Assembly (NCBI GenBank): GCA_964016885.1
Contig: CAXHJY010001654.1
Coordinates: forward strand, 1-55,904
DNA from: Eledone cirrhosa
Lineage: Eukaryota
Length of the DNA: 55,904 nucleotides
Direction of reading: 5' to 3'
Below, piece by piece: positions 2,411 to 50,426 of this stretch (position 1 is its first letter; each line of letters opens with the position of its first letter). Both the position numbers and the translations under genes were made by a program. The notes under the pieces were generated by a model, which saw nothing but the letters and a program-made list of their open reading frames with translations, had not been told where the DNA came from and did not search any database.

Positions 2411-2780
2411 ACGGAAGAACTTAGAGTCAACGGCCATCCAAAAGTATGTAAATATGTATATACACATGTACGCAGTTAAACCACTGGGCGTAAAGGACCC
2501 CTAGCCTTTATCAAGGCATTCTTCTAGAAGGCAACTCAGGAAACTGGGATAACTCCGATATAAAACCTGCGGCTCAGTAGTTACCGATGATGTTGATCTT
2601 CTCTTCTTTTCGAATTATAGCTACTGTCGCTCAGAGAGTGGGATTGGCTCAGTGCACAGTCTTTCCTCACTTTAAAAAAATATCCTCACGCACAGGCATT
2701 GCACGATAGAATTAATTAATAATTATTAATAATGGTATATAGTGCAATGGCCATACTCGATAACGAGGGGGCAGCCATCA
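2411..2780 (+). mobile_element. Non-autonomous bipartite RTE derivative (5'UTR plus 3' terminus of the LINE at 19434-23616)
   Basis: 2471-2732 matches the reverse complement of ~23319-23576. 2742-2780 (gtgcaatggccatactcgataacgagggggcagccatca) is identical to the LINE 3' end at 19434-19472. Confidence 0.92.
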
Positions 2781-2832: not shown

Positions 2833-3258
2833 TCATCATCAGCGTTTTACGTCCGTTCTTCCATGCTAGCATGGGTTAGATGGGTTGTCCTCTTGTGGGT
2901 AGTGTCCGGTAGGCTGACTTTGTCTTGCTCATACGGGAACTGATTCTGGCTTGATTTCTACAGCTGGATGCCCTTCCTAACACCAACCTCATTTACAGTG
3001 AGTGCCAGGTGCTTTTTTTTCCGTTGTGCCTACACGTCCACTATTAATGTGGGCTGGGTGTTTTTTTGCCGTGGCACCTCCACGACCACTTTGCAGTGGA
3101 ATGATAGGGACCCCAATCCTATCATCTCATTTCTACAGCTGAGAAAACTGGAGCAATGTGAAATAAAGTGTCTTGGTCAAGGAAACAACATATCACCTGG
3201 TCTGAGAATTGAACTCACAACCTTTTGATTGCAAGCCCAATGCTCTAACCACTAAGCC

Positions 3259-3260
<2 letters not shown>
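2832..3260 (-). mobile_element. tRNA-derived CORE-type SINE with RTE-derived tail
   Basis: A box TGGCTTAGTGG, B box GAGTTCAATTC, CORE-like CTTGACCAAGACACTT...CTCAGCTGTAGAAATGAG, tail ending CCATGCTAGCATGG...GATGATGAT. Confidence 0.9.
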
Positions 3261-3691: not shown

Positions 3692-3731
3692 ATAATATAA
3701 GATCAAAAGATGGTTAAAGGAGTTCAATATA

Positions 3732-3798
3732 TTTTATTATGCGCATTTCAAAAACAAACATCATCAAACAATAATATTTGTGTTTTCATCAGATAAAA
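3732..3798 (-). ncRNA. Minimal type I hammerhead ribozyme (mirror copy)
   Basis: Reverse complement of 3926-3992. Confidence 0.8.
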
Positions 3799-3925
3799 CA
3801 GGAGAACATGATATGAAGGCTAAAAAAAACACTTGTTGATAGTGCAGTTTTAAATCAACATATGTTGATTTAAAACTGCACTATCAACAAGTGTTTTTTT
3901 TTAGCCTTCATATCATGTTCTCCTG

Positions 3926-3992
3926 TTTTATCTGATGAAAACACAAATATTATTGTTTGATGATGTTTGTTTTTGAAATGCGCATAATAAAA
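3926..3992 (+). ncRNA. Minimal type I hammerhead ribozyme
   Basis: Stem I TTTTAT/ATAAAA; core CTGATGA; stem II ACAAATATTATT-gttt-GATGATGTTTGT; GAAA; palindromic stem III ATGCGCAT; AUA triplet (cut after 3986); AATAAA overlaps. Confidence 0.82.
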
Positions 3993-4117
3993 TATATTGA
4001 ACTCCTTTAACCATCTTTTGATCTTATATTATGCATACTCCAGTCCCACAAACTGTAGAGTGCTTCTTATCCGATATCTGCATTGCTTTATTGTACTACA
4101 ATAAAACTCACCTCCTA

Positions 4118-9959: not shown

Positions 9960-10550
9960 TATGATGGCCACAATTCAACATGGCTTTTTCAGACGTGGAA
10001 ACGATTGGGGGGGGGGGGGGGCTTCTTGCAGTAGGCATTACAGTGCCACTTTGGTCTACTTTCATATGGCATTTCAGTCCATTAACGGAGATATTCTTGG
10101 CAGGATTCTTATGAAAGTGGCTTTAAAGATGACTTCTAATGTCGGCCTTACTTAGACATATCCGACTACATTCTTTACATGCCAAGATACCCTGCCAAGA
10201 TACTCAGGCAAACTGACCTCAAGGCCCTTATGAGCACACCACTTCAACTGTTCATGCTCAACAGTTTCTTTCAAATTCTCCCTGCCCATAGAGCGAGGTT
10301 CTCCCAGCCATTCTCTGATATTTTCATCTTCCCTGGTGTGCTTTTAATGCAATCCTTGTACTCCAATTTCGGTTTGTGTGCTGGCCATTTACCTTCAACT
10401 AGCTCACCATACAGGAACTGCCTAGGGATGTGATCATCATCCATTCCCACTACATGACCACTCCATCTTAACCGATGTTGAAATACGAGAGAGATTATAC
10501 TGGTAGACCGACTGCATTCAAGGAGTTCAGTGTAACTCATGTACATTTTC
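9960..10550 (-). pseudogene. Degenerate 3' fragment of an RTE/BovB-like LINE
   Basis: QHRLRWSGHVVGMDDDHIPRQFLYGELVEGKWPAHKPKLEYKD, paralogous to the C-terminus of 19688-23233. Confidence 0.85.
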
Positions 10551-10802
10551 CTGTTGCATGGTCAGGTCATCAGTGACTAAACTGGCAACATACATATACA
10601 TACATATATATATATGTGTGTGTGTGTATGTCTTGATCCCAAATTAATCGGAGTTAACTAGTGTAAATAAGGTACTCAATACATATGTAGTGTGATGATA
10701 TAGAAAAGGCTTCTATATAACTTGAACTGTATCATTTATATGAAATCATCAGGAATGTTCATTCCTGGTGATTTCATACGAATGAATGAATATATATATA
10801 TA

Positions 10803-11940
10803 TACTAGCTCATTCCATTGCACAGATGGTTCTATAGAAATAGTGGACAGCTTCCGTTACATGGGTGACAAAATCAGCAGTGGAGGAGGGTGCTCTGAAA
10901 GTACAGTAGCTAGAGTCAGAATGGGATGGAAAAAGTTCAGAGAGCTTATACCACTATTGGCCGCTAAAGGGTTCTCTCTAAAAATGAAAGGCAGGCTGTA
11001 TGATTCCTGCATACGAACAGCAATGTTACATGGCAGTGAGACCTGGGCATTGTGTGCAGAGGATATACGCAGACTGGAGAGAAACGAAGCTTGCATGCTC
11101 CGCTGGAATTGTAATAGTAATATACGTGAACGGCAAAGCATAAACGAACTAAGGGAGAAATTAGGAATAAGAGGGATCAGATGTTGTTTACTCGAGAGAA
11201 GACTACGTTGGTACGGTCACGTGATGCGCATGAAAGACGACAGCTGTATAAAAAAGTGCAGGGCGATAAAAATAGACGGTAGCCACGGAGTAGGCAGACC
11301 CAGAAAAATCTGGGACGACTTGATAAATTCCGACCTCACACACTTACACCTCTCCAAGACAATGTCACTGGACCGAGATCTTTGGCGCTACACAGTTATA
11401 CAGAAGACCCGCCTTGCCTACAAAGCGAAACCTACAGTCAGTAGGCACCTCTAACAAAATACACCCCCATCCCACTACCCCCACCCCATCCACACCACCC
11501 CCTTAAATGTGAAGTTATGTTGGTACCACAACATCCAGTCCGAAACAAATGAGGTCGTGTAGGTGTCACGACAAAAAAAACCACAGTCCACGCTGTAATG
11601 TGGCCGTGTAGGTAACATGGTAAAAACCTCCCAGTACACACTGTAAACGTGGTTGGTGTTGGGAAGGGCACCCAGCCGTAGAAAACCCGCCAGACGTGTG
11701 GGTGTCACGACAAAAAAACACACAGTCCATGCTGTAATGTGGCCGTGTGGGTAACAAGGTAAAAACCTCCCAGTCCACACTGTAAACGTGGTTGGTGTTA
11801 GGAAGGGCATCCAACCGTAGAAAACCCGCCAGACAGTCCTATACGAGCAGGACAGCCAATCTTGCCTCAAGTGGGAAAACTCCCGTCCAAACCCATGCAA
11901 GCATGGAAGATGGACGTTAAACGATGATGATGATGATGAT
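10803..11940 (+). mobile_element. 5'-truncated RTE LINE (PHD lineage): 3' ORF end plus 3'UTR with an internal duplication
   Basis: [10 protein letters not shown]...[11 protein letters not shown]...GRPRK, stop at 11454. The 3'UTR module is duplicated (~11557-11695 and ~11696-11834). (GAT)n tail. Confidence 0.93.
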
Positions 11941-14771: not shown

Positions 14772-14784
14772 AATACACATATAT

Positions 14785-14809
14785 TTATATATACATAGAC
14801 ATATATACA

Positions 14810-14845
<36 letters not shown>

Positions 14846-15426
14846 CATGCATATATATATATATGTATTTATATACATACATACATATATATATATATAT
14901 TTATATACATACATACATACATATATATATATACATACATGCATATATATATATATATATATATATACGTACATGCATATACATATATATATATATATAC
15001 GTACATGCATATATATATATATATATTTATATACATACATGCATATATATATATATATATTTATATACATACATGCATATATATATATATATATTTATAT
15101 ACATACATGCATATATATATATATATATTTATATACATACATGCATATATATATATATATATTTATATACATACATACATATATATATATATATATTTAT
15201 ATACATACATACATATATATATATATATATTTATATACATACATACATATATATATATTTATATACATACATACATATATATATATATATATTTATATAC
15301 ATACATACATATATATATATACATACATATATATATATATACATACATATATATATATACATACATACATATATATATATATACATACATATATATATAT
15401 ACATATATATATACATACATACATAT

Positions 15427-15459
<33 letters not shown>

Positions 15460-15582
15460 CATACATACATACATACATATATATATATATATACATACAT
15501 ATATATATATACATACATATATATATATATACATACATGCATATATATATATATATATACATACATGCATATATATATATAC

Positions 15583-15621
<39 letters not shown>

Positions 15622-15705
15622 CATACATATATATACATACATACATATATATATATATACATACATATATATATATATACATACATATATATATATACAT
15701 ACATA

Positions 15706-15737
<32 letters not shown>

Positions 15738-15835
15738 CATATATATACATACATACATACATACATATATATATATACATACATATATATATATATACAT
15801 ACATACATATATATATATACATACATACATATATA
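14785..15835. repeat. (TA)n/(TACA)n array with a TATTTATATACATACATG variant
   Basis: Direct reading. Confidence 0.98.
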
Positions 15836-16204
15836 TGGTGGCTGCCAACTCGTTTTCGAGTACGGCCACTACTTTATATCCATGTAGGAGAACCCCTACC
15901 GATGCGCTGAACGAGTGTGACTTTTTAGTCCAGCTAGCGACTTGAAAACTCGGGTACAAACACTACACTTGTGACAATTATTGACACATAGTGCTTTGCC
16001 TTTGGTACCATGTGACGACAAGTGCAGAGAGATCTCCAGATATAAAGCAATGCCTGTGCCGTGAAGCTTTTATAGTGAGCAAAGGCACTGCACAAAGCCA
16101 GTCCCACTCTCTTAACCAAGATGATATTTACCAAAAAGAAGAACAAGTCAACATCATTGGATACCATCAGGGTTGCAGGTGTTATATCAGAGTTTTCCTT
16201 CTCC
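15836..16204 (-). mobile_element. Bipartite non-autonomous RTE element, family B, 5'-truncated
   Basis: Near-identical to the 3' part of 17123-17727; 3' end ctcgaaaacgagttggcagccacca. Confidence 0.9.
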
Positions 16205-16288
16205 GATATATACATACATATATATACATACATACATACATACATATATAGATATACATACATACATATATACATACATACATACATA

Positions 16289-16320
<32 letters not shown>

Positions 16321-16349
16321 CATACATATACATACATACATATACATAC

Positions 16350-16434
<85 letters not shown>

Positions 16435-16451
16435 CACATACATATATATAT

Positions 16452-16502
<51 letters not shown>

Positions 16503-16513
16503 CACATACATAT

Positions 16514-16564
<51 letters not shown>

Positions 16565-16828
16565 CACATACATATATATATATATACATACATATATATA
16601 TATATATACATACATACATATATATATACATACATATATATATATATACATACATATATATATATATATATATACATACATATATATATATATACATACA
16701 TATATATATATATATATACATACATATATATATATATACATACATATATATATATATATATATACATACATAGATATATATACATACATATATATATATA
16801 CATACATATATATATATATACATACATA

Positions 16829-16869
<41 letters not shown>

Positions 16870-16953
16870 ACATATATATATATACATACATACATATATA
16901 TACATACATACATACATATACATACATACATATATATATATATATACATACAT

Positions 16954-16984
<31 letters not shown>

Positions 16985-17122
16985 CATACATACATACATA
17001 TATATATATACATACATACATACATACATATACATACATACATATATATATATATATACATACATACATATATATATATACATACATACATACATATATA
17101 TATATACATACATACATATATA
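16205..17122. repeat. (TA)n/(TACA)n array
   Basis: Direct reading. Confidence 0.98.
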
Positions 17123-17727
17123 TGGTGGCTGCCAACTCGTTTTCGAGTACAGCCACTACTTTATATCCATGTAGGAGAACCCCTACCGATGCGCTGAACG
17201 AATGTGACTTTTCAGTCCGGCCAGCGACTTGAAAACTTTGGTACAAACACTACACTTGTGACAATTATTGACACATAGTGCTGGGCCCATGGTACCATGT
17301 GACGACAAGTGCAGAGAGATCTCCAGATATAAAGCAATGCCTGTGCCGTGAAGTTTTTATAGTGAGCAAAGGCACTGCACAAAGCCAGTCCCACTCTCTT
17401 AACCAAGATGATATTTACCAAAAAGAAGAACAAGTCAACATCATTGGATATCATCAGGGTTGCAGGTGTGATATCAGAGTTTTCCTTCTCCTAGAATTCT
17501 GCCTTGACAAAGGCTAAGGGGTCATCTCTCCCGGTGATTTTGGATGGCCATTGACTCTTAAGAGCTCCTTTGCCCTTTGACAGGTTTTGTTTTTAGTCCT
17601 GCAGGATGTCCAAAGTCACCCTCCTCACCAAGAAACCTTGGTGGGGTTGCCAGTTTAGTCGCCAACGACCCGACCATGGGACAGGTTGTACTGGGATACA
17701 TGTTACCAGTAGCACCAACTGGTGACC
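17123..17727 (-). mobile_element. Bipartite non-autonomous RTE element, family B, full length (about 605 bp)
   Basis: RTE-like 5'UTR related to 23340-23560, joined to the last C2H2-finger codons ([23 protein letters not shown]) and the RTE 3' end. Confidence 0.92.
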
Positions 17728-17789
17728 TATATACATACATATATACATACATATATACATACATACATATATATATATACATACATACA

Positions 17790-18396
17790 TGGTGGCTGCC
17801 AACTCGTTTTCGAGTACGGCCACTACTTTATATCCATGTAGGAGAACCCCTACCGATGCGCTGAACGAGTGTGACTTTTTAGTCCAGCCGGCGACTTGAA
17901 AACTCTGGTACAAACACTACACTTGTGACAATTACTGACACAGTGCTGGGCCCATGGTACCATGTGACGACAAGTGCAGAGAGATCTCCAGATATAAAGC
18001 AATGCCTGTGCCGTGAAGCTTTTATAGTGAGCAAAGGCACTGCACAAAGCCAGTCCCACTCTCTTAACCAAGATGATATTTACCAAAAAGAAGAACAAGT
18101 CAACATCATTGGATACCATCAGGGTTGCAGGTGTTATATCAGAGTTTTCCTTCTCCTAGAATTCTGCCTTGACAAAGGCTAAGGGGTCATCTCTCCCGGT
18201 GATTTTGGATGGCCATTGACTCTTAAGAGCTCCTTTGCCCTTTGACAGGTTTTGTTTTTAGTCCTGCAGGATGTCCAAAGTCACCCTCCTCACCAAGAAA
18301 CCTTGGTGGGGTTGCCAGTTTAGTCGCCAACGACCCGACCATGGGACAGGTTGTACTGGGATACATGTTACCAGTAGCACCAACTGGTGACCTGAC
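17790..18396 (-). mobile_element. Bipartite non-autonomous RTE element, family B, full length
   Basis: Near-identical to 17123-17727; encodes [23 protein letters not shown]. Confidence 0.92.
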
Positions 18397-18857
18397 ATAA
18401 ATACATACATACATATATATATATATACATACATACATACATATATATATACATACATATATATATACATACATACATATATATATACATACATATATAT
18501 ATACATACATACATATATATATACATACATATATACATACATACATATATATATACATACATATATATATACATACATACATATATATATACATACATAC
18601 ATATATATATACATACAAATATATATATATACATACATATATATATACATACATATATATATACATACATATATATATACATACATATATATATACATAC
18701 AAATATATATATATACATACATATATATATATATACATACATATATATATATATATATACATACATACATATATATATACATACATATATATATATATAT
18801 ATACATACATACATATATATATACATACATATATATATATATATATACATACATACA

Positions 18858-18911
<54 letters not shown>

Positions 18912-19064
18912 TATACATACATATATATATATATACATACATATATATATATATACATACATATATATATATACATACATATATATATATATATACATAC
19001 ATATATATATATACATACATATATATATATATACATACATATATATATACATATATATATATAT

Positions 19065-19111
<47 letters not shown>

Positions 19112-19178
19112 CATATATATATACATATATATATATACATATATATATACATACATATATATACATATATATACATAC

Positions 19179-19227
<49 letters not shown>

Positions 19228-19433
19228 CATATATATATATACATACATATATATATATATACATATATATATACATACATATATATATATACATATATAT
19301 ATACATACATATATATATACATACATATATATATACATACATATATATATACATACATATATATATACATACATATATATATACATACATATATATATAC
19401 ATACATATATATATATATACATATATATATACA
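18397..19433. repeat. (TA)n/(TACATACA)n array
   Basis: Direct reading. Confidence 0.98.
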
Positions 19434-19507
19434 TGATGGCTGCCCCCTCGTTATCGAGTATGGCCATTGCACAATAAAAAAAAAAAAATAAATAAAATAA
19501 AAAAAAA

Positions 19508-19562
<55 letters not shown>

Positions 19563-19641
19563 GCAATAATAATAATAACGACAACAACAATAATAATATA
19601 CATATTCATATATATATACACACACACGCACGCACATAAGC

Positions 19642-19679
<38 letters not shown>

Positions 19680-22600
19680 GATAGCAACTAACAGTGCTGC
19701 GATCGAATGTGGCTTTTTAGCCCAGCCAATGATCCAAAATGTCTTGCACAGAGTCGGCAACCAAAACATTTACTGGGAATAGTCGGCTGTGGTTGGAGTT
19801 CGTGTACTTTTGCATGTCGCTTGAGTCCTCCTGCTGATTTACATTCTCTACCACATGTTTGGCAAGCATGATGAGTAGCATCTCCAACAGCAGCCTGGTA
19901 GTCAACCACTGGTCTTACTTTATGACTGCGAAGATGACTTTCGAGTCCAGCTTTGCTTAGGCAGAGTCTCGCACAGACGCTGCATGTCAGAAACATAGGA
20001 GGACCCTCGCCGTCTGGAAGTGCAACAGCAATACCCTTCCTCACGTCCCGCTTTACTTTCTCGTGTGCGATTCGAGATGCCTCAAAGGCAACTTTTCCCT
20101 CATATACAGTCTTTCTCCATTTATTACGATCAGCAGCAATATTTTCCCATGTATCAGCAGAGATGTTAGCGTCTTTCAGAGAGGCCTTCAAGGAATCCTT
20201 ATACCTCTTTTTTGGTTTATGTGGCGGTCGTTTTCCTTTAACCAACTCTCCATAGAAGAGTTGTTTTGGTATTCTAGAATCCTTCATCCTGGCAAGGTGA
20301 CCACTCCAACGGAGTCGCTGCTTAAGCACAAGAGCTTCTATACTGTCACACATAGAGCTTTCCAAAATCTCGACATCACTGATGTGGTCCCTCCAGCGAA
20401 CGCCATGTATCCGTCTGAGACACATCTGATGGAAACGCTCCAATTGCTTAAGGTGGCGTCGATATGTGACCCAGGTCTCGCAGGCATAAAGAAGACAAGA
20501 GAGTACACATGCCCTGTACACCTTTACCTTTGTCCTCCTGCATATGTCTCGCCGACCCCAGAGTCGCCTTTCTAGCTTTCCGAAAGCATCACTTGCTTTC
20601 CTAATCCTAAGTGAGATTTCACTGTCAAGGTTGCCGTATCGATTGACAGTGCTTCCCAGGTAGACAAACTGATCAACCACTCCAAGTCGTTTGCCATACA
20701 CATAGATGTTTGGTTCAGTGTACTGCCTACCAGGTGCAGGTTGGTACATGACGACGGTTTTCTTGAGACTGACAGTCAAACCCAGGGCAGTGCAAGCGTC
20801 AGAAAATACATTCAAAATGTGCTGCATATCACTCTCTGTGTGCGCTACAAGATCGCAATCATCTGCATACAAGAGGTCTCTTATGACTGATGTAAATACT
20901 TTTGTCTTCGCAGCAAAGCGCCTGATGTTAAATATGCTGCCTGAGGTTCGATATCGGATGTAAACACCATGCTCGCAATTCCTGAATGCAATACAGAAAA
21001 CCATTGCAAAGTATATGGCAAACAGGGTCGGTGCTGGAATATCCCCCTGTTTCACTCCATTTTTTACTGAGATAGGCTCCGACATGTTACCTCCGACATT
21101 AACCCAAGCCTTCATGTCGTCATGGAAAGACCTAACTAAAGCAAGGAACTTATCAGGGCAACCAAGTTTCTGGAGAACCTTCCATAATGCATCTCTGTTG
21201 ACAGTATCGAAAGCCTTTGTCAGATCGACAAAAACCTGATACAGATCCAAGCCCTGTTCAATGCACTTCTCCTGGAGCTGTCTAGCTGAGAAGATCATAT
21301 CAGTAGTGCCGCGTCCAACACGAAAACCAGATTGACTTTCAGGAAGGACACAATCTGCAATGTGTGTCAGCAGACGGTCCAGAAGCACCCTACATAAAAC
21401 TTTCCCCACGACAGAAAGCAATGATATACCTCTGTAGTTCCCACAATCATTCCTGTTACCCTTTCCCTTGTACAAGACCACCATTACTGCATCTCTCCAG
21501 TCCTCAGGCACGGATTCATTAGCCCATATCCTTCCAAACAGAGAGTGAAGATGTTGCAGGAGTCTCTCACCACCATATTGTAGGAGCTCAGCATGTATGC
21601 CATCCATACCTGGAGATCTTCCACTGTTCAGCTTCGAAATAGCCACTGCAACCTCCACAAGTGTCGGAGGCTCTGCGAGAGCTACTTTCACAGGACTTTC
21701 CGGAATGAGATTGAGGAAATCTTCACTGACGACAGACGGCTGATTCAAAAGATCATCAAAGTGCTCCCGCCACCTTCGTAGAATTCCCTGTGAGTCACGA
21801 AGAAGTTCTTTGCCATCCCTGCTGCGAATCGGTGTCACCAGAGAAGAAGACGGTCCATAAACCTCACGCAAGAGACTGTACAACAGCTTTGTGTTATTGC
21901 AATCAGACGCAGTTTGTATCTCACCAGCCTTCTCACTCCACCACTGATCCTTCATCTGAGAAAGACTCCGCCTAACACGTGATTTTACATCCCTGAGCTC
22001 CTCATGCAACGTATTCCTCTCCTGTGGTCTTGCCGTCAAGTAGCGTGACAGAGCGCGCCTCTTATCAGCCAACAAGTCATCTATATGCACATCTTTCTCA
22101 TCAAACCAGTCCTGATGTTTTCTCTGCACCAATCCCAGAACACGTCTGCCTACATCATAAACCGACTTTTTAAGGGTCGGCCAATCCTCACCAAGATCTG
22201 CAGCCTGCATCTCTTCTTCCAATGTCCTCTTCACATTTTTATCCTTAAGACGAGCAGCATTCAATCTTTTGGGCAGGGTAACACCAGGAGCCCGGATTTT
22301 ACGTTTGGTGATTAGATTCACTTTTGCGCGTACCAGGCGGTGGTCCGTCCAGCACTCAGCTCCACGAAGAACACGAACACACCGCACATCCTGTCTGTCA
22401 CGCATCCTGACTAGGACGTAGTCCAAAAGATGCCATTCCTTAGATGCAGGATGCATCCATGTGGTCTTGAATTTGTTCTTTTGTTGGAACATGGTGTTGG
22501 TAACACACAGATCCAGCTCCTCACACATCTGCAGCAAGAGCATACCATTGCTGTTACACTTTCCCACCCCATGCCTTCCGATTACATTCCATGTGTTAAA

Positions 22601-23278
22601 ATCCCTACCCACTCTAGCATTAAAGTCACCAAGCACGATGACTTTGTCTGCCTGAGGGATATTTCTTAAAACACCTTTCAAGGCATGGTAAAAGGACAGT
22701 TTTTCTTCATCGACAGAATTCATAGTTGGAGCATACACACTCACCAGGGTAGCATATCTTCCCTTGTCCAGCGGAACTCTCATGGACATAAGACGCTCAC
22801 TAATCCCCACTGGGAATTCTTCCAATTTATTCACCAGTACAGTCTTAACAGCAAATCCTACCCCAGCCTCTCTTCTGGTTCCTTCATCTCTTCCTTTCCA
22901 GAAGAATGTATATTCTCCACAAAATTCCGTAAGATGACCATCTCCAGCTAACCTCGTCTCAGACAAAGCCACGATGTCAAGATCGTAACGTCGAAGCTCC
23001 CTCGCAACAAGAGCGGTCCTTCGTTCAGGACGCTCCAAAGAATCCCTGTCAAGCAGCGTCCGTACGTTCCAGCAGCCAAGACTAAATGCCCTGTTTGGCT
23101 CTATTACAATGGCACGATGACGGGCGGGCCCAGGTTGTGATAACTTGGGGCCCCTGCCCTTATTGCCAATGATCTTTTTTGTTCCAGAACCCAAATTGGC
23201 AATTATCTCGTTTACATTGTTCTGGAACATCATTGAATTGGGGAAAAAAAAAAAAAAAAAAAAAAAAAAGTAATAATA

Positions 23279-23313
<35 letters not shown>

Positions 23314-23614
23314 ACACTATTAATAATTATTAATGCACTCGTGCAATGCCTGTGCGTGACGAATATTTTTAAAGTGAGGAAAGACTGTGCACTGAACCAA
23401 TCCCACTCTCTGAGCGACAGTAGCTATAACCCGAAAAGAAGAAAAGATCAACATCATCGGTAACTACTGAGCCGCAGGTTTTATATCGGAGTTAACCCAG
23501 TTTCCTGAGATGCCTTCTCCTAGAAGAATACCCTGACATGGGCTAGGGGTTCTTCACTCCCAGTGGTTTAACTGCGCGATCGGGCATCCAGCCCGATTAT
23601 TTCTATGTCCCCGC

Positions 23615-23616
<2 letters not shown>
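19434..23616 (-). mobile_element. Apparently intact single-ORF RTE/BovB-like LINE
   Basis: 5'UTR, 1181-aa ORF, 3'UTR with (TG)n and (TAT)n tracts, and terminal hairpin CTCG-ATAA-CGAG. Confidence 0.95.
19688..23233 (-). CDS. RTE LINE ORF: APE endonuclease, reverse transcriptase and three C-terminal C2H2 zinc fingers
   Basis: WNVRTL, LSETR, VYAPT, GDFNAR, TDHRLV (APE); [32 protein letters not shown] (RT); CSVC..H..H, CQTC..H..H, CRLC..H...H. Uninterrupted. Confidence 0.97.
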
Positions 23617-23650
<34 letters not shown>

Positions 23651-23653
<3 letters not shown>

Positions 23654-24852: not shown

Positions 24853-24857
<5 letters not shown>

Positions 24858-24882
24858 TATACATACATATATATATACATAC

Positions 24883-24937
<55 letters not shown>

Positions 24938-24938
24938 C

Positions 24939-24969
<31 letters not shown>

Positions 24970-25183
24970 CATACATACATATATATACATACATACATAT
25001 ATATACATACATACATATATATACATACATACATATATATACATACATACATATATATACATACATACATATATATATACATACATACATATATATACAT
25101 ACATACATATATATACATACATACATATATATACATACATACATATATATACATACATACATATATATACATACATACATATA

Positions 25184-25215
<32 letters not shown>

Positions 25216-25430
25216 CATATATATACATACATACATATATATATATACATACATATATACATACATACATATATATATATACATACATATATATATATAC
25301 ATACATATATATATATACATACATATATATATATACATACATATATATATATACATACATATACATACATATATACATACATATACATACATACATACAT
25401 ATACATACATACATATATATACATACATAC

Positions 25431-25479
<49 letters not shown>

Positions 25480-25487
25480 CATACATA

Positions 25488-25519
<32 letters not shown>

Positions 25520-25880
25520 CATATATATATATACATATATATATACATACATATATATATATATATACATACATATATATACATATACATACATACATAC
25601 ATATATACATACATATATACATACATACATATATACATACATACATACATACATACATACATACATACATACATAAATATATATATACATACATGCATAT
25701 ATATATATATATATATATACATACATGTACATGAATATACATACATGTACATGAATATACATACACATACATGAATATATGTACATGCATATACATATAT
25801 ATACATACATGCGTACACACAAACATATATATATATACACACATATACATACATGCGTACACACAAACTTATATATATAT
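24853..25880. repeat. (TA)n/(TACA)n array preceded by an A-rich tract
   Basis: Direct reading. Confidence 0.98.
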
Positions 25881-29706: not shown

Positions 29707-31750
29707 CATCATCAACATCATCATCATCAACGTTTAACGTCCGTGTTCCACGCTTGCATGGGTTTGGACGGGGGTAGTCCCACTTGAGGCAAGAGTGATT
29801 GTCTTGCTCGCATAGGACTGTCTGGCAGGTTTTCTACAGTTGGATGCCCTTCCTAACACCAACCACATTTACAGTGTGGGTCTGGGAGGTTTTTACCGTG
29901 TTGCCTACACGGCCACATTACAGCGTGGACTGTGTGTTTTTTTGTCGTGACACCTACACGATCTCATTTGTTTCGGCCTGGATGGCGCGGCACCAACATA
30001 ACTTTACATAGAACGGGGTGGTGTGGATGGGGTGGGGGTGGTGGCGCGACGGGGTGTATTTTGTTAGAGATGCCTACTGGCAAGGCGGGTCTTCTCTGTT
30101 ACTGAGTACCGCCAAAGGTCTCGGTCCAGTGACATTGTCTTGGAGAGGTGTAAGTGTGTGAGGTCGGAGTTTATCAGCTCATCCCATGTTTTTCTAGGTC
30201 TGCCTATTCCGTGGCTACCGTCTATCTTTATTGCCCTGCACTTTGTTATACAGCTATCGACTTTCATGCGCATCACGTGTCCATACCAACGTAGCCTTCT
30301 CTCGAGTAAACAACATCTGATCCCTCTTATCTCTAATTTTTTCCTTAGTTCGTTTATGCTTTGCCGTTCACGTATATTACTGTTACACATCCAGCGGAGC
30401 ATGCAAGCTTCATTCCTCTCTAGTCTGCGTATATCCTCTGCACACAATGCCCAGGTCTCACTACCATGCAACATTGCTGTTCATATGCAGGCATCGTACA
30501 ACCTGCCTTTCATTTTTAGGGAGAACCCTTTAGCGGCTAATAGTGGTATAAGCTCTCTGAACTTTTTCCAACCAGTTCTGACTCTAGCTACAGTACTTTC
30601 AGAGCACCCTCCCCCACTGCTGATTTTATCGCCCAGGTAACGGAAGCTGTCCACTATTTCTATAGAACCCTCTGCGCAATTGAAAGAGCTAGTATTTTGT
30701 GGGCACTTGCTGCTACTTATTGCACCAGAACACCGGCCACATGTAAAGTCTATGTTCTTAGTTAGCTTACCTGTGATCCCACTACATCTTTTATGCACCC
30801 ATACTTTGCATTTAGAACATAAAATGGAGTTTCTACCTACGCCTTTCCTACATACCGAGCACGACCATTTCCCAGAAGGGACCGCCGCCTTGTTTTCTTT
30901 CCTACAAACTAGAACTTTGGTCTTAGCCAGGTTAATTTTAAGTCCTTTTGACTCTAGGCCGTGCTTCCATGTTTGGAATTTCTTCTCTAGCTCGGCCATT
31001 GATTCCGCTATGAGTGTCAGGTCGTCTGCGTATAGGAGTTCCCATGGGCAGCCTGTCTTGAACTCCTCTGTTATAGCCTGAAGGGCAATAATAAATAGTA
31101 GGGGGCTGAGATGGACGCCAACTTTTACGCTAAACTCTTCACTATATTCGTTGTTAATTCTAACCTTGCTGACTGTTTCTTTATACATGGCTTGTATAGC
31201 CCTCACAAGCCATTCGTCAACGCCTAGTTTTCTAAGAGCCCACCAGATAATGGAGCGGGGGACTCTGTCGAAGGCTTTCTCCAGGTCGACAAAAGCTAAG
31301 TAGAGGGGTTTACCTTTAGCTAGGTACTTCTCCTGTAGTTGTCGTACTATGAAAAGAGCGTCTGTGGTGCTTTTGCCTGACACAAACCCGAACTGCATTT
31401 CATCTAGGTCAATTCTCTCTCTGATTAGTTGCGCTATTACTTTTTCCGTGACCTTCATGACCTGGTCGATTAATTTAATGCCTCTATAGTTACTCCTATC
31501 TAGGGCGTCTCCTTTACCCTTATAACAGTTAACGATGATGCTGCTATGCCAGTCCTTCGGAACAACCCCATTCTGTACGACTTGGCTAACTATGCGGGTG
31601 ACCATGGTGTGTCCCACCGTGCCAGATGCCTTCAGCATCTCAGCAACTATTTCCGAAGGCCCAGCCGCCTTACGCGTCTTCATATCCTTGATTGCCTTAC
31701 TTATTATACTCCCCTCGACTAACACTGCTGGTCCCTCTATCGGGTCGATA
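29707..31750 (-). mobile_element. 5'-truncated, inactivated RTE LINE (PHD lineage)
   Basis: Near-identical to 38815-40890; 12-bp deletion of QGSV at ~31110 and CGA>TGA stop at 30481; (GAT)n tail. Confidence 0.96.
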
Positions 31751-33436: not shown

Positions 33437-33780
33437 GAGGCACATGGCTTAGTGGTTAGAGCATTGGCCTTGCAATCGAAAGGTTGTGAGTTCAATTCTC
33501 AGACCGGGTGATGTGTTGTTTCCTTGAGCAAGACACTTTATTTCACATTGCTCCAGTTTACTCAGCTGTAGAAATGAGATGATAGGGACTGAGGTCCCTA
33601 TCATTCCACTGCAAAGTGGTCGTGGAGGTGCCACGGCAAAAAAGCACCCAGCACTCACTGTAAATGAGGTTGGTGTTAGGAAGGGCATCCAGCTGTAGAA
33701 ATCAAGCCAGAATCAGTTCCCGTCCCACCCTTGTAAGCAAGGAAAAGGGGACGTAAAATGAAATGATGATGAAATGATGA
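33436..33780 (+). mobile_element. Full-length tRNA-derived CORE-type SINE (tail type 2)
   Basis: A and B boxes; CCTTGAGCAAGACACTT...CAGTTTACTCAGCTGTAGAAATGAGATGATA (CORE-like); 11-bp hairpin ATGATAGGGAC-TGAG-GTCCCTATCAT; RTE-type tail. Confidence 0.92.
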
Positions 33781-33791
33781 TATATACATAT

Positions 33792-34112
33792 GGAGGCACA
33801 TGGCTTAGTGGTTAGAGCATTGGCCTTGCAATCGAAAGGTTGTGAGTTCAATTCTCAGACCGGGTGATGTGTTGTTTCCTTGAGCAAGACACTTTATTTC
33901 ACATTGCTCCAGTTTACTCAGCTGTAGAAATGAGATGATATGGAATGGGGTCCCTATCATTCCACTGTAAAGTGGTCGTGGAGGTGCCACGGCAAAAAAA
34001 GCACCCAGCACTCACTGTAAATGAGCTGTAGAAATCAAGCCAAAATCAGTTCCCGTCCCACCCTTGCAAGCAGGGAAAAAGCGGACGTAAAATGAAATGA
34101 TGATGATGATGA
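33792..34112 (+). mobile_element. Tandem second CORE-type SINE with an internal deletion
   Basis: Head identical to 33436; lacks the gttggtgttaggaagggcatcc block. Confidence 0.92.
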
Positions 34113-38814: not shown

Positions 38815-41594
38815 CATCATCATCATCATCATCAGCGTTTAACGTCCGTGTTCCACGCTTGCATGGGTTTGGACGGGGGTAGTCCCACTTGAGGCAAGAG
38901 TGATTGTCTTGCTCGCATAGGACTGTCTGGCAGGTTTTCTACAGTTGGATGCCCTTCCTAACACCAACCACATTTACAGTGTGGGTCTGGGAGGTTTTTA
39001 CCGTGTTGCCTACACGGCCACATTACAGCGTGGACTGTGTGTTTTTTTGTCGTGACACCTACACGATCTCATTTGTTTCGGCCTCGATGGCGCGGCACCA
39101 ACATAACTTTACATAGAACGGGGTGGTGTGGATCGGGTGGGGGTGGTGGGACGGGGTGTATTTGTTAGAGATGCCTACTGGCTGGAGTAGGTTTTACTAT
39201 ATATTTAGGTAAGGCGGGTCTTCTCTGTTACTGAGTACCGCCAAAGGTCTCGGTCCAGTGACATTGTCTTGGAGAGGTGTAAGTGTGTGATGTCGGAGTT
39301 TATCAGCTCGTCCCAGGTTTTTCTAGGTCTGCCTATTCCGTGACTACCGTCTATCTTTATTGCCCTGCACTTTGTTATACAGCTATCGACTTTCATGCGC
39401 ATCACGTGTCCATACCAACGTAGCCTTCTCTCGAGTAAACAACATCTGATCCCTCTTATCTCTAATTTATTCCTTAGTTCGTTTATGCTTTGCCGTTCAC
39501 GTATATTACTGTTACACATCCAGCGGAGCATGCAAGCTTCGTTCCTCTCTAGTCTGCGTATATCCTCTGCACACAATGCCCAGGTCTCACTGCCATGCAG
39601 CATTGCTGTTCGTATGCAGGCATCGTACAACCTGCCTTTCATTTTTAGTGAGAACCCTTTAGCAGCTAATAGTGGTATAAGCTCTCTGAACTTTTTCCAA
39701 CCAGTTCTGACTCTAGCTACAGTACTTTCAGAGCACCCTCCCCCACTGCTGATTTTATCGCCCAGGTAACGGAAGCTGTCCACTATTTCTATAGAACCCT
39801 CTGCGCAATTGAAAGAGCTAGTAGTTTGTGGGCACTTGCTGCTACTTATTGCACCAGAGCACCGGCCACATGTAAAATCTATGTTCTTAGTTAGCCTACC
39901 TGTGATCCCACTACATCTTTTATGCACCCATACTTTGCATTTAGGACATAAAATGGAGTTTCTACCTACGCCTTTCCTACACACCGAGCACGACCATTTC
40001 CCAGAAGGGACCGCCGCCTTGTTTTCTTTCCTACAAACTAGTACTTTGGTCTTAGCCAGGTTAATTTTAAGTCCTTTTGACTCTAGGCCGAGCTTCCATG
40101 TTTGGAATTTCTTCTCTAGCTCGGCCATTGATTCCGCTATGAGTGTCAGGTCGTCTGCGTATAGGAGTTCCCATGGGCAGCCTGTCTTGAACTCCTCTGT
40201 TATGGCCTGAAGGGCAATAATAAATAGTAGTGGACTGAGAACAGAGCCCTGATGGACGCCGACTTTTACGCTAAACTCTTCACTATATTCGTTGTTAATT
40301 CTAACCTTGCTGACTGTTTCTTTATACATGGCTTGTATAGCCCTCACAAGCCATTCGTCAACGCCTAGTTTTCTAAGAGCCCACCAGATAATGGAGCGGG
40401 GGACTCTGTCGAAGGCTTTCTCCAAGTCGACAAAAGCTAAGTAGAGGGGTTTACCTTTAGCTAGGTACTTCTCTTGTAGTTGTCGTACTATGAAAAGAGC
40501 GTCTGTGGTACTTTTGCCTGACACAAACCCGAACTGCATTTCATCTAGGTCAATTCTCTCTCTGATTAGTTGCGCTATTACTCTTTCCGTGACCTTCATG
40601 ACCTGGTCGATTAATTTAATGCCTCTATAGTTACTCCTATCTAGGGCGTCTCCTTTACCCTTATAACAGTTAACGATGATGCTGCTATGCCAGTCCTTCG
40701 GAACAACCCCGTTTTGTACGACTTGGTTAACTATGCGGGTGACCATGGTGTGTCCCACCGTGCCAGATGCCTTCAGCATCTCAGCAACTATTTCCGAAGG
40801 CCCAGCCGCCTTACCAGTCTTCATATCCTTGATTGCCTTACTTATTATACTCCCCTCGACTAACACTGCTGGTCCCTCTATTGGGTCGATATGGGGGAGA
40901 CTGCCTTTCTCCCAATTATTCTCCTCATTTAGAAGCCTTTCATAGTGACACTTCCAAGCTACCTTCTTATCAGCGTCGGTGATGGCAAGTGTGCCATCGT
41001 CGTTTAGTACACACTTCTCCCCGACAATATCACGGTTTTCCTTGACGCATTGCCTAGCAATCCTGAACACCTCACGTTTTTGGTCATCGCGTTGTAGAAC
41101 ATGCTTGAACTTTCTTTCCTCAGCTTCCCTTCTTGCTAAGTACACTTGTCTCCTAGCTTCCCTCCTGGCCACTTGATAGTCCTCTCTACTTCCCCCATCC
41201 CGCCATACTTTCCAAGCCTGCTTTTTGGCCTTAATTGACCCCTCCACCTTACTGTTCCACCACCATGTTACTCTCCTCCTGCCTACAGGCCTGCTCCAGC
41301 CACAGACCTCGTCTGTCGCCAACAGCAGGTTTGCTTTCAGAAATTCCCACTCTCCCTCTATATTGTCCGACTCTAAATGTTCTTCCTTACTGTCGAAAGC
41401 ATCAAGTAATATGCTTTGAAATTTATTCCTGGCTGTGGGGTCCTTTAACTTCCATATTTTCCTCCTGAGGATAGTCCTCTTCTGTTGTCGAGTACGTCTC
41501 GTCCTGACTATGAGGTCGCTAATTATCAGTCTATGTTGGGAGGTGCATTCTTCATGGGGGAGGGATTTAGTGTTAACAACAGACACTCTGTCAC
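38815..41594 (-). mobile_element. Young 5'-truncated RTE LINE (PHD lineage) with a candidate 19-bp TSD
   Basis: (GAT)n tail, 3'UTR, open frame 39205-41594; CATACATATATATATACAT at both 38796-38814 and 41595-41613. Confidence 0.96.
39205..41594 (-). CDS. Truncated RTE ORF (end of APE, RT, PHD-type finger); no genuine start codon
   Basis: [62 protein letters not shown]; no internal stops. Confidence 0.9.
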
Positions 41595-49821
<8,227 letters not shown>

Positions 49822-50426
49822 TGGTGGCTGCCAACTCGTTTTCGAGTACGGCCACTACTTTATATCCATGTAGGAGAACCCCTACCGAAGCGCTGCATGA
49901 GTGTGACTTTTTAGTCCAGCCAGCGACTTGAAAACTCTGGTACAAACACTACACTTGTGACAATTATTGACACATAGTGCTGGGCCCATGGTACCATGTG
50001 AGGACAAGTGCAGAGAGATCTCCAGATATAAAGCAATGCCTGTGCCGTGAAGCTTTTATAGTGAGCAAAGGCACTGCACAAAGCCAGTCCCACTCTCTTA
50101 ACCAAGATGATATTTACCAAAAGAAGAACAAGTCAACATCATTGGATACCATCAAGGTTGCAGGTGTTATATCAGAGTTTTCCTTCTCCTAGAATTCTGC
50201 CTTGACAAAGGCTAAGGGGTCATCTCTCCCGGTTGATTTTGGATGGCCATTGACTCTTAAGAGCTCCTTTGCCCTTTGACAGGTTTTGTTTTTAGTCCTG
50301 CAGGATGTCCAAAGTCACCCTCCTCACCAAGAAACCTTGGTGGGGTTGCCAGTTTAGTCGCCAACGACCCGACCATGAGACAGGTTGTACTGGGATACAT
50401 GTTACCAGTAGCACCAACTGGTGACC
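49822..50426 (-). mobile_element. Bipartite non-autonomous RTE element, family B, full length
   Basis: Near-identical to 17123-17727, with the same 5' nucleotide. Confidence 0.92.

Follow-up and report, generated by a model that had tools for sequence, protein, structure and literature searches.

A three-finger RTE-type LINE and its short relatives in Eledone cirrhosa: probable one-orientation insertion into ATGT microsatellites

Results

A LINE lineage associated with ATGT repeats

The stretch of Eledone cirrhosa DNA analyzed here (55,904 nucleotides, hereafter the window) carries an RTE-type LINE and five short non-coding copies that, on balance, are likely to insert by TPRT into ATGT-containing microsatellites in one orientation. 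The initial annotation had proposed strand-specific targeting of TA arrays. Strand specificity is supported, and it recurs in distant three-finger relatives, but, judged from the sequences, the target looks like ATGT units and less like TA arrays generally. We tentatively propose, with less confidence than the insertion preference itself, that the LINE belongs to an undescribed and widespread RTE lineage that may have turned ATGT-specific on gaining two C-terminal C2H2 fingers. Site specificity would then have arisen a third time independently among APE LINEs, R1 and Tx1 being the other two cases, and here through an added finger module and not a reshaped endonuclease.

Anatomy of the LINE and of its protein

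The LINE appears autonomous (Table 1). Its 1181-aa ORF is indeed uninterrupted, as the translation from 23233 to 19688 on the minus strand (protein P0001) contains no stop, and a pattern scan recovered the three tandem C2H2 fingers, at aa 1084, 1124, and 1159 (nt 19984-19691). Pfam places an Exo_endo_phos match at aa 55-276, and the YADD of the RT is at aa 789-792. Only ~380 nt of UTR lie upstream of the ORF, while the 3' UTR is mostly made of (TG)n, (TAT)n, and T runs. A separate gag-like ORF1 is absent; this layout, one ORF with an N-terminal APE-like endonuclease and an RT, is that of an RTE-clade LINE, as is the short 3' terminus with its hairpin and tandem-repeat tail. The LINE is presumably a member of the RTE clade, an assignment that would rest on domain layout and on a 5' UTR motif that related loci share with RTE-2_OV; the tree described below contains no named RTE reference (BovB, RTE-1).

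No HDV-like ribozyme matched at the Rfam gathering score in the window, where the sole match at that score was a tRNA-like SINE head. An HDV descriptor search gave no match in the LINE or in element D and non-canonical matches in B3, with none convincing in the LINE, D, or family B; among the relatives, it returned one candidate, in locus L001.

Six elements with a common 3' terminus

The LINE, D, and the four family-B copies do end alike, with GCAGCCA(C/T)C followed by AT in 6/6 elements. Their single polarity was equally borne out: in the 40 nt past the 3' junction, the sense strand of all six carries four to six TG and zero CA. Four of them form the head-to-tail stack described earlier, in the order B1, B2, B3, and LINE, spaced by arrays of 919, 64, and 1035 bp. 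The stem of the 3' hairpin covaries across eight ends of the three-finger lineage, with eight cells showing a two-sided change versus 0/500 shuffles, for a structure that was drawn from the same sequences.

The short elements had been taken for derivatives of the LINE. This is correct for D (89.5% and 97.7%), but not for family B: its low similarity to the LINE (in the 5' UTR ~69% across ~230 nt, at the 3' end 86% across 36 nt) and the remnant it retains of the third finger of a sister element rule out a deletion product of the LINE. Both D and family B are bipartite, non-autonomous RTE elements composed of a 5' UTR part and a 3' end, with the ORF deleted, and the type is multi-copy. The B copies are 96-99% alike but start at three different 5' ends, consistent with separate insertions. 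Altogether, the six copies represent three independent loci in the window, four copies being in one cluster. Target-site duplications are hard to read at these copies, both flanks being low-complexity repeat.

Table 1 Features of the window
Feature	Position	Strand	Remarks
D	2413..2778	+	Derived by internal deletion from the subfamily of the LINE itself; sense-polarity ATGT arrays at 2386-2412 and 2779-2829
Polar array 3' of B1	14773..15837	-	120 C : 16 G; 62% tandem ATGT
B1, 5'-truncated family-B copy	15838..16205	-	368 bp; internal junction with the array
Polar array between B2 and B1	16206..17124	-	116 C : 3 G; 59% tandem ATGT
B2, family-B copy	17125..17727	-	Starts a few nt further in than B3 does at its 5' end
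Polar array between B3 and B2	17728..17791	-	64 bp
B3, longest bipartite non-autonomous copy	17792..18400	-	5' UTR part, finger-3 remnant, 3' hairpin
Polar array 3' of LINE, 5' of B3	18401..19435	-	118 C : 1 G on + strand; 50% of spacings tandem ATGT
Terminal stem-loop and GCAGCCATC end	19435..19465	-	3' terminus of LINE
RTE-type LINE	19436..23616	-	5' UTR, single ORF, 3' UTR, terminal hairpin
ORF P0001, intact	19688..23233	-	1181 aa; APE-like endonuclease, RT, three C2H2 fingers
Three C2H2 fingers	19922-19984, 19802-19864, 19691-19759	-	Pattern scan; long linkers
RT core	20648..21451	-	Pfam RVT_1, aa 595-862, E 1.5e-30
Endonuclease domain	22319..23086	-	~aa 50-305; motifs WNVRT, SETR, VYAPT, GDFN, LDY, TDH present
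Poly(A)35	23617..23651	+	Poly(T) on LINE sense strand; sole non-ATGT junction of 12
Polar array 3' of B4	41595..49823	-	8.2 kb; 663 C : 6 G; ~2.9-3.0 kb internal triplication
B4, family-B copy	49824..50426	-	Flanked by the 8.2-kb array and by another of 541 bp with equal polarity

Junction polarity compared with a control family

Sense ATGTATGT was found within ~40 nt of 6/6 3' junctions and 5/6 5' junctions, against a background of 5.1%, and ATGT stands on the sense strand at 11 of the 12 junction flanks. Five of the six copies have an equal repeat on both flanks with fixed polarity, the 5' flank of the LINE being poly(T)35 on the sense strand, with no array. By chance, a junction would meet a TA array whose TG polarity is sense with a probability of 0.16 per site and 0.004 for three loci; for an array with sense ATGTATGT, it is 0.051 per site.

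A second LINE family of the window, (GAT)n-tailed and without C2H2 fingers, served as the control. Its 3' ends adjoin TA arrays in 11 of 19 cases with no polarity (5:5:1 over the 11 array-adjacent ends), and ATGTATGT was found at 2/19 (Fisher p=1.6e-4 versus the six elements, a value that overstates the difference, as these are only three independent loci in the window). The flanks had been expected to be TA-rich and polarised beyond random; in the window, this is the case for polarity and ATGT, but not for TA adjacency, which is not special by itself because TA arrays make up 34% of the window and the control ends adjoin arrays as well. A homolog search with the control family showed no cephalopod name among the 120 matches listed; the top Atlas cluster is Eukaryota, with Mollusca commonest, and the sequence resembles that of an octopod genome.

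Chance, biased retention of copies, and effects of assembly in so TA-saturated a region are very unlikely to account for the pattern. Such a reading would draw on the array share of the window, on the polarity common to most large arrays (14/19 are C-type on the plus strand, with most elements on the minus strand), and on the four clustered copies; against it, the control family is without polarity, D changes strand together with its arrays, and unrelated metagenome contigs carry the equal motif on the equal strand.

Family B could also be followed in other sequence sets. In run X1, from one holder organism, 18,645 contigs align to B2. Among the matches listed, at least 13 distinct family-B 5' truncation points join a TA-type array and none shows an opposite-polarity joint, in a search that sees only flanks like the 21-nt flanks of the window, leaves copies elsewhere uncounted, and, at 85%, would accept a flank of pure (TA)n on both strands alike. 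C-type interruptions are present in the loose-end consensus of this run at 17534 and 17118. The 5'-truncated copies are joined to the target repeat too, as seen for B1 and for the X1 copies among the matches listed. Seventeen organisms are listed with 0.45-0.94 of the B2 words, with no RNA data set among the holders listed. We do not take this as a sign of horizontal transfer: X4 gave one element contig at a depth of 6.5, and the reads of X23 and X24 gave no element-body depth, these raw reads being from organism J, in other samples than the listed holder X12.

Origin of the arrays

RTE elements are reported to generate microsatellites (PMC2887409). It was suggested that the RT seeds the arrays, and one may ask whether insertion is simply generic at TA/AT, with the RT laying down (ATGT)n that later grows into polar arrays. 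The arrays 3' of B1, B2, and the LINE are within the top four for ATGT richness of the 19 arrays of at least 100 bp, and one metagenome locus, L016, has a short tail followed by unique DNA, both of which would suit this reading. We nevertheless hold it to be improbable. Arrays of the same polarity form the 5' flanks of D, B4, L001, and L002, and truncated X1 copies have arrays there as well; the array at 24853-25855 is equally ATGT-rich with no element in it; and ATGT density shows no steady fall away from the junctions. For the giant arrays, in particular, RT seeding finds no support, given the arrays on 5' flanks, the element-free array, and the kb-scale duplications, with a ~3-kb triplication, inside the 8.2-kb array. 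It is possible that the RT adds a few tail units. RNA editing as a source of the A-to-G polarity was set aside, as the spacing patterns recur in long blocks.

Distant three-finger relatives

Metagenome relatives of P0001 share 47-51% identity with it. (ATGT) repeated at least three times follows the stop in 5/5 three-finger loci versus 0/30 others, a count that left out six loci with tails under 45 nt. L001 and L002 have (ATGT)n at both ends with equal polarity, and no other locus among the 74 has a 5' array; both-flank ATGT is thus seen in two of the three three-finger loci having upstream DNA, the other, L039, having 1074 bp upstream without an array. In L016, ~4 ATGT units and a GT precede the unique flank. 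All 53 three-finger rows fall inside one 60-row clade (SH 100) in a tree made with FastTree only, which does not contain L016. Outside the three-finger clade, ~ten other tail motifs occur, and the single-finger relatives with other short tails mostly continue into unique DNA after a few units, none beginning with an (ATGT)n array.

A comparison of endonuclease residues, in which 22 of 32 clade proteins and 11 of 22 outside proteins were retained, revealed no clade-specific loop, V286 being the only clade-specific residue in that domain. A homolog search of genome contigs added five distant loci (27-31% identity). No relative of P0001 was found in viral contigs, where 10 pattern matches were dismissed as chance, as none has a tblastn hit to P0001.

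Proposed mechanism

In the homing model that we favor, the protein would bind the 3' hairpin of its own or of a passenger RNA, and the endonuclease would nick the (ACAT)n strand, probably at the TpA step; the freed end would then pair with the AU(GU) RNA terminus and prime cDNA synthesis. Because ATGT/ACAT is asymmetric, TG would lie on the sense strand of every copy. Repeated hits on one array would produce the head-to-tail stacks, and the arrays would owe most of their length to slippage and duplication of the DNA at a later stage. We predict that the fingers help to keep the protein on the ATGT repeat. Such a role would account for the persistence of the motif throughout a deep clade, in contrast to the changing tails of single-finger relatives.

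The earlier proposal that the APE and zinc fingers together direct insertion amounts, for the fingers, to a correlation in one clade. In the tree, finger gain and the ATGT association are a single evolutionary event, which counts against the homing model, as do the poly(T) 5' flank of the LINE, the array-free upstream DNA of L039, and the short tail of L016. The predicted properties of the fingers may also speak against their reading of the repeat: of the Pfam C2H2 matches in P0001, which are below curated cut-offs, two are to the zf-C2H2_jaz (dsRNA-binding) and zf-met families; the base-reading positions of the helices are small residues (S, A, G); and the linkers are long and of low pLDDT in the structure prediction.

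The finger helices, which look poor for base reading, would suit a less probable but sizeable alternative, in which ATGT insertion is real and occurs only through pairing of a read-through (AUGU)n RNA end combined with a generic TpA nick, the fingers binding RNA or serving another step. Nicking or priming led by the tail is the published RTE model (PMC6007223), and pairing of the RNA end with a nicked (ACAT)n strand would yield equal polarity; the (GAT)n tail of the control family, which can pair only through the palindromic AT, goes with TA arrays of either orientation. It is harder to reconcile with the unique DNA that mostly follows the short tails of single-finger relatives, none of which starts with an (ATGT)n array, and with BovB, which seldom has a target resembling its tail next to its copies (PMC13295347). 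Pairing alone would also leave the clade-wide retention of ATGT unexplained, against the variety of tail motifs outside. Homing to (ATGT)n would also account for element stacks inside simple-repeat arrays and for the breaks of short-read assemblies there.

Comparison with known systems

In the site-specific LINEs of R1 and Tx1, a gag-like ORF1 of its own precedes the EN/RT ORF, and the LINE has no ORF1 of this type. Microsatellite-specific non-LTR elements include Waldo and Mino of R1, Kibi and Koshi of Tx1, and Dong. Togen, inserted in (TG)n, and some HERO families are further examples (PMC4640811). Like the LINE lineage, these elements insert into simple repeats in a fixed orientation and stack in arrays. 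They belong, as far as described, to RLE clades or to R1/Tx1, whereas the LINE is of RTE type, has C-terminal fingers, and would target a tetranucleotide. Tx1 and R1 are listed as the APE clades with target-specific members (PMC4640811), and another paper gives only these two (PMC13295347). An RTE lineage homing to (ATGT)n would, if confirmed, be a further origin of APE-LINE site specificity beyond them; the literature searched, which lay outside Repbase and most subscription papers, yielded no description of a three-finger RTE or of an RTE specific for ATGT/TATG. The one-finger sister lineages, with other tails and dispersed flanks, offer a natural control, so that the role of RTE repeat tails (priming, targeting, or by-product) becomes testable. 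RTE-1_MD already serves for gene writing by RNA delivery, with random integration (PMC13708176), a field for which a compact single-ORF RTE that targets a microsatellite would be of interest.

The closest described element is RTE-2_OV of Octopus vulgaris (Petrosino et al. 2022, PMC9115989), which is also a single-ORF RTE with an endonuclease, an RT, and a C2H2 finger, and whose microsatellite begins at the ORF end. It is described as encoding 1109 aa with a single C2H2 finger, compared with 1181 aa and three fingers for the LINE. One RTE-2_OV primer matches the 5' UTR motif of related loci in 8/9 loci tested, with 1-5 mismatches. The best matches of four RTE-2_OV primers to the LINE have 3-7 mismatches; together with the differences in length and finger number, this indicates that the LINE is of another family.

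BovB and other RTE LINEs share the single ORF, 3' hairpin, repeat tail, and TA-related nicking (PMC6007223, PMC13295347, PMC2887409). They insert dispersedly, and tail-like flanks are rare (PMC13295347), whereas the LINE lineage has the motif on both flanks and conserved across its clade. Finally, Bov-A, RTESINE1/2, and MAR4_MD (PMC5786205) combine a 5' UTR and a 3' end without an ORF, as do D and family B; family B differs from them, as they are described there, in keeping a finger-3 remnant and in following the ATGT polarity.

An intact three-finger LINE and its short relatives

The window is eukaryotic and rich in AT, and its 37 TA-type arrays total 19,085 bp (34%). The LINE ORF (23233 to 19688, minus strand) translates without a stop into 1181 residues (protein P0001), with fingers starting at aa 1084, 1124, and 1159, confirming the uninterrupted ORF with three C2H2 fingers described in the initial annotation. 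Pfam recognized an endonuclease/exonuclease/phosphatase domain and RVT_1 (E = 1.5e-30), while the C2H2 matches were sub-threshold. P0001 carries YADD and the usual endonuclease motifs, and its closest solved relatives are L1 ORF2p and R2 proteins. AlphaFold2, using a 29-row alignment, predicted the fingers as separate strand-strand-helix units with moderate confidence, joined by linkers of low confidence. Layout and motif, rather than a tree with named references, place the LINE putatively among the RTEs. T26 and (TAT)n runs lie just 5′ of the LINE ATG (23244-23311); the first ~45 nt of the element (23572-23616) differ from D and, by eye, resemble a separate hairpin.

Elements of the finger family and of the control family in the window
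Element	Position	Strand	Common end	Other copies
D	2413-2778	+	GCAGCCA(C/T)C	
B1	15838-16205	-	GCAGCCA(C/T)C	
B2	17125-17727	-	GCAGCCA(C/T)C	
B3	17792-18400	-	GCAGCCA(C/T)C	
LINE	19436-23616	-	GCAGCCA(C/T)C	
B4	49824-50426	-	GCAGCCA(C/T)C	
Control family	39205-41594	-		fragments 1-804, 30064-31747, 10786-11454, and others

The LINE and five short non-autonomous copies share one end, and the 40 sense-strand nucleotides downstream of it contain TG without CA in all six, as had been claimed for a sense-strand TG-type repeat. The proposal that the short copies derive from the LINE stands for D, which matches it at 89.5% over 267 nt of 5′ UTR and 97.7% over the last 44 nt and arose by internal deletion within the LINE's own subfamily. 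It does not stand for family B (B1-B4), whose source is a sister element within the LINE's lineage, because its match to the LINE 5′ UTR is about 69%, its hairpin is a variant, and it carries a third-finger remnant. Since the B copies are 96-99% identical to one another with three different 5′ ends, separate insertions fit better than tandem duplication. D and family B share the bipartite non-autonomous RTE design known from the available part of PMC5786205. Eight 3′ ends, some in the window and some in relatives, show covariation in the stem-loop, the structure having been drawn from these same sequences with one of eight pairs misregistered. Next to a 44-bp mixed array, 10351-10589 holds degraded pieces: minus-strand sequence related to the part of the LINE that follows the RT (61 nt at 74%) and plus-strand sequence related to the 5′ part of family B (40 nt at 82%).

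Sense-strand ATGT marks the junctions

TA adjacency by itself is no more than chance in the window. The control family is a second, abundant LINE family whose RT core is followed by a PHD-like insert/finger and whose tail is (GAT)n. Of its 19 recognizable 3′ ends, 11 adjoin TA arrays, in either orientation, with a TG:CA polarity of 5:5:1 over array-adjacent ends; the family may prefer TA/AT sites. Its copies are sometimes tail-to-tail across one array (35724/35819).

The finger family is distinguished by tandem sense-strand ATGT. This motif occurs at 6/6 3′ and 5/6 5′ junctions, no more than about 40 nt away, compared with a background of 5.1% of position-strands and with 2/19 control family ends (Fisher p = 1.6e-4), figures that overstate the case, the six copies being only three independent loci with some flanks in common. 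Cubing the background for three loci gives 0.051^3, ~1e-4. The exception is the LINE 5′ flank, poly(T)35.

Relatives with and without three fingers

The C-terminal 332 aa of P0001 retrieved 90 proteins, a set enriched for its close relatives, and three C-terminal fingers were present in 49 of 91 (query counted). A metagenome scan of 27 of 64 parts, keeping the best 80 of 486 matches, yielded 74 loci; 41 had a finger and a stop, and six with tails under 45 nt were left out. Among these best matches, at least three ATGT units follow the stop in 5/5 three-finger loci vs 0/30 others, whose tails are CAT, CAA, CATA, CAAG, CAG, ATG, CTA, AT, ATT, or AG repeats, or none. These loci and the window junctions together support the targeting branch of the initial annotation, insertion in a fixed orientation. 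Two loci, L001 and L002 (51% and 48% identical to P0001), have (ATGT)n at both start and end in one polarity. No 5′ array was found in the 1074 bp upstream of L039, and L003 and L016 lack 5′ ends, the L016 tail being short.

A FastTree built from 128 RT regions groups every one of the 53 three-finger rows, P0001 and four ATGT loci among them (L016 was left out by the length filter), in one 60-row clade (SH 100) whose remaining seven rows have 0-2 detected fingers. Clade-diagnostic positions are mostly in fingers 2 and 3, with one in the endonuclease. A possible role for the fingers is reading the ATGT repeat: ATGT is kept through the three-finger clade and tails vary freely outside it. However, finger gain and the ATGT association form a single event, the base-reading positions of the helices hold S/A/G, and a finger family that binds dsRNA is among the weak Pfam matches.

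A descriptor search matched one candidate HDV-like ribozyme in L001 (50-150), which begins at the element's 5′ junction. LINE sequences labelled as bacterial MAG proteins or contigs (P0052, P0101, L075-L079) are probably eukaryotic contamination.

Truncated copies in sequencing runs

In sequencing run X1, 18,645 contigs match B2, and family B is therefore highly repeated in that organism, from which the window itself may come. Comparison with B2 and its 21-nt flanks gave, among the rows listed (28, 80, and 338 rows lie beyond them), 13 distinct 5′ truncation points (17283-17683) joined to array and no opposite-strand joint to array; joints are seen only for flanks resembling those of the window, and pure (TA)n passes on either strand. 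The loose ends at 17534 and 17728 have TA-type sequence, and the C-type interruptions are present in those at 17534 and 17118. At least some truncated family-B copies thus land in arrays. In sixteen other coded organisms (runs X4-X20), 0.45-0.66 of the family-B words are present. The one compared with the element showed a single low-depth contig, which makes transfer less likely than low-level carry-over.

Array growth

The suggestion that RT seeding or expansion helps explain the giant arrays was not borne out, as same-polarity arrays lie on the 5′ side, where a 3′ tail origin is impossible. A polar 1-kb array without a three-finger element (24853-25855) has ATGT at 57% of spacings, vs 50-62% in the element cluster, and is a candidate empty target. 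No steady fall of ATGT density away from junctions was found in the window arrays. The 8.2-kb array at 41595-49823 (663 C vs 6 G on the plus strand) contains a ~2.9-3.0 kb internal triplication. Because a block of 36 identical spacings recurs at 43592 and 49528, and 27 spacings of it at 43620, 46514, and 49556 (at most 8 in shuffles), this array grew at least partly by DNA duplication. At least 85% single polarity was seen in 11 of the 19 large arrays.

Three tRNA-derived SINE-like heads occur at 3202-3259 (minus; Rfam tRNA, 31.6 bits) and about 33437-33500 and 33790-33860 (plus), two of them directly downstream of long TA arrays. By eye, 3700-4115 holds a long near-perfect inverted repeat (about 3700-3865 vs 3865-4030).

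Proposed mechanism and known systems

At every 3′ junction the flank begins AT first, after ...CA(T/C/A)C. From this phase and established TPRT chemistry, we propose that the (ACAT)n strand would be nicked, probably at TpA, that the nicked end would pair with the AU(GU) RNA end, and that cDNA would be primed at the paired nick. Copies would have a fixed polarity because ATGT is asymmetric; the control family, which would pair through AT alone, has none. Whichever the route, insertion into ATGT arrays is quite probable; a protein-assisted route is slightly more likely than not.

The feature is real: the window holds an RTE lineage that likely targets ATGT microsatellites, represented by a single intact ORF and its passengers. 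The literature searched, which excluded Repbase and most subscription journals, yielded no RTE that is ATGT-specific or has three fingers, and a database entry may exist. In the accessible portions of the sources, RTE tails are proposed as guides of nicking or priming (PMC6007223) and as creating microsatellites (PMC2887409), tail-like targets rarely flank BovB copies (PMC13295347), and site-specific APE LINEs are said to occur in Tx1 and R1 only (PMC13295347, PMC4640811). An RTE-BovB expansion is described for cephalopods in part of PMC10294476. Octopus RTE-2_OV is described as combining, like the LINE, C2H2 fingers with a 3′ microsatellite (PMC9115989); it belongs to a different family.
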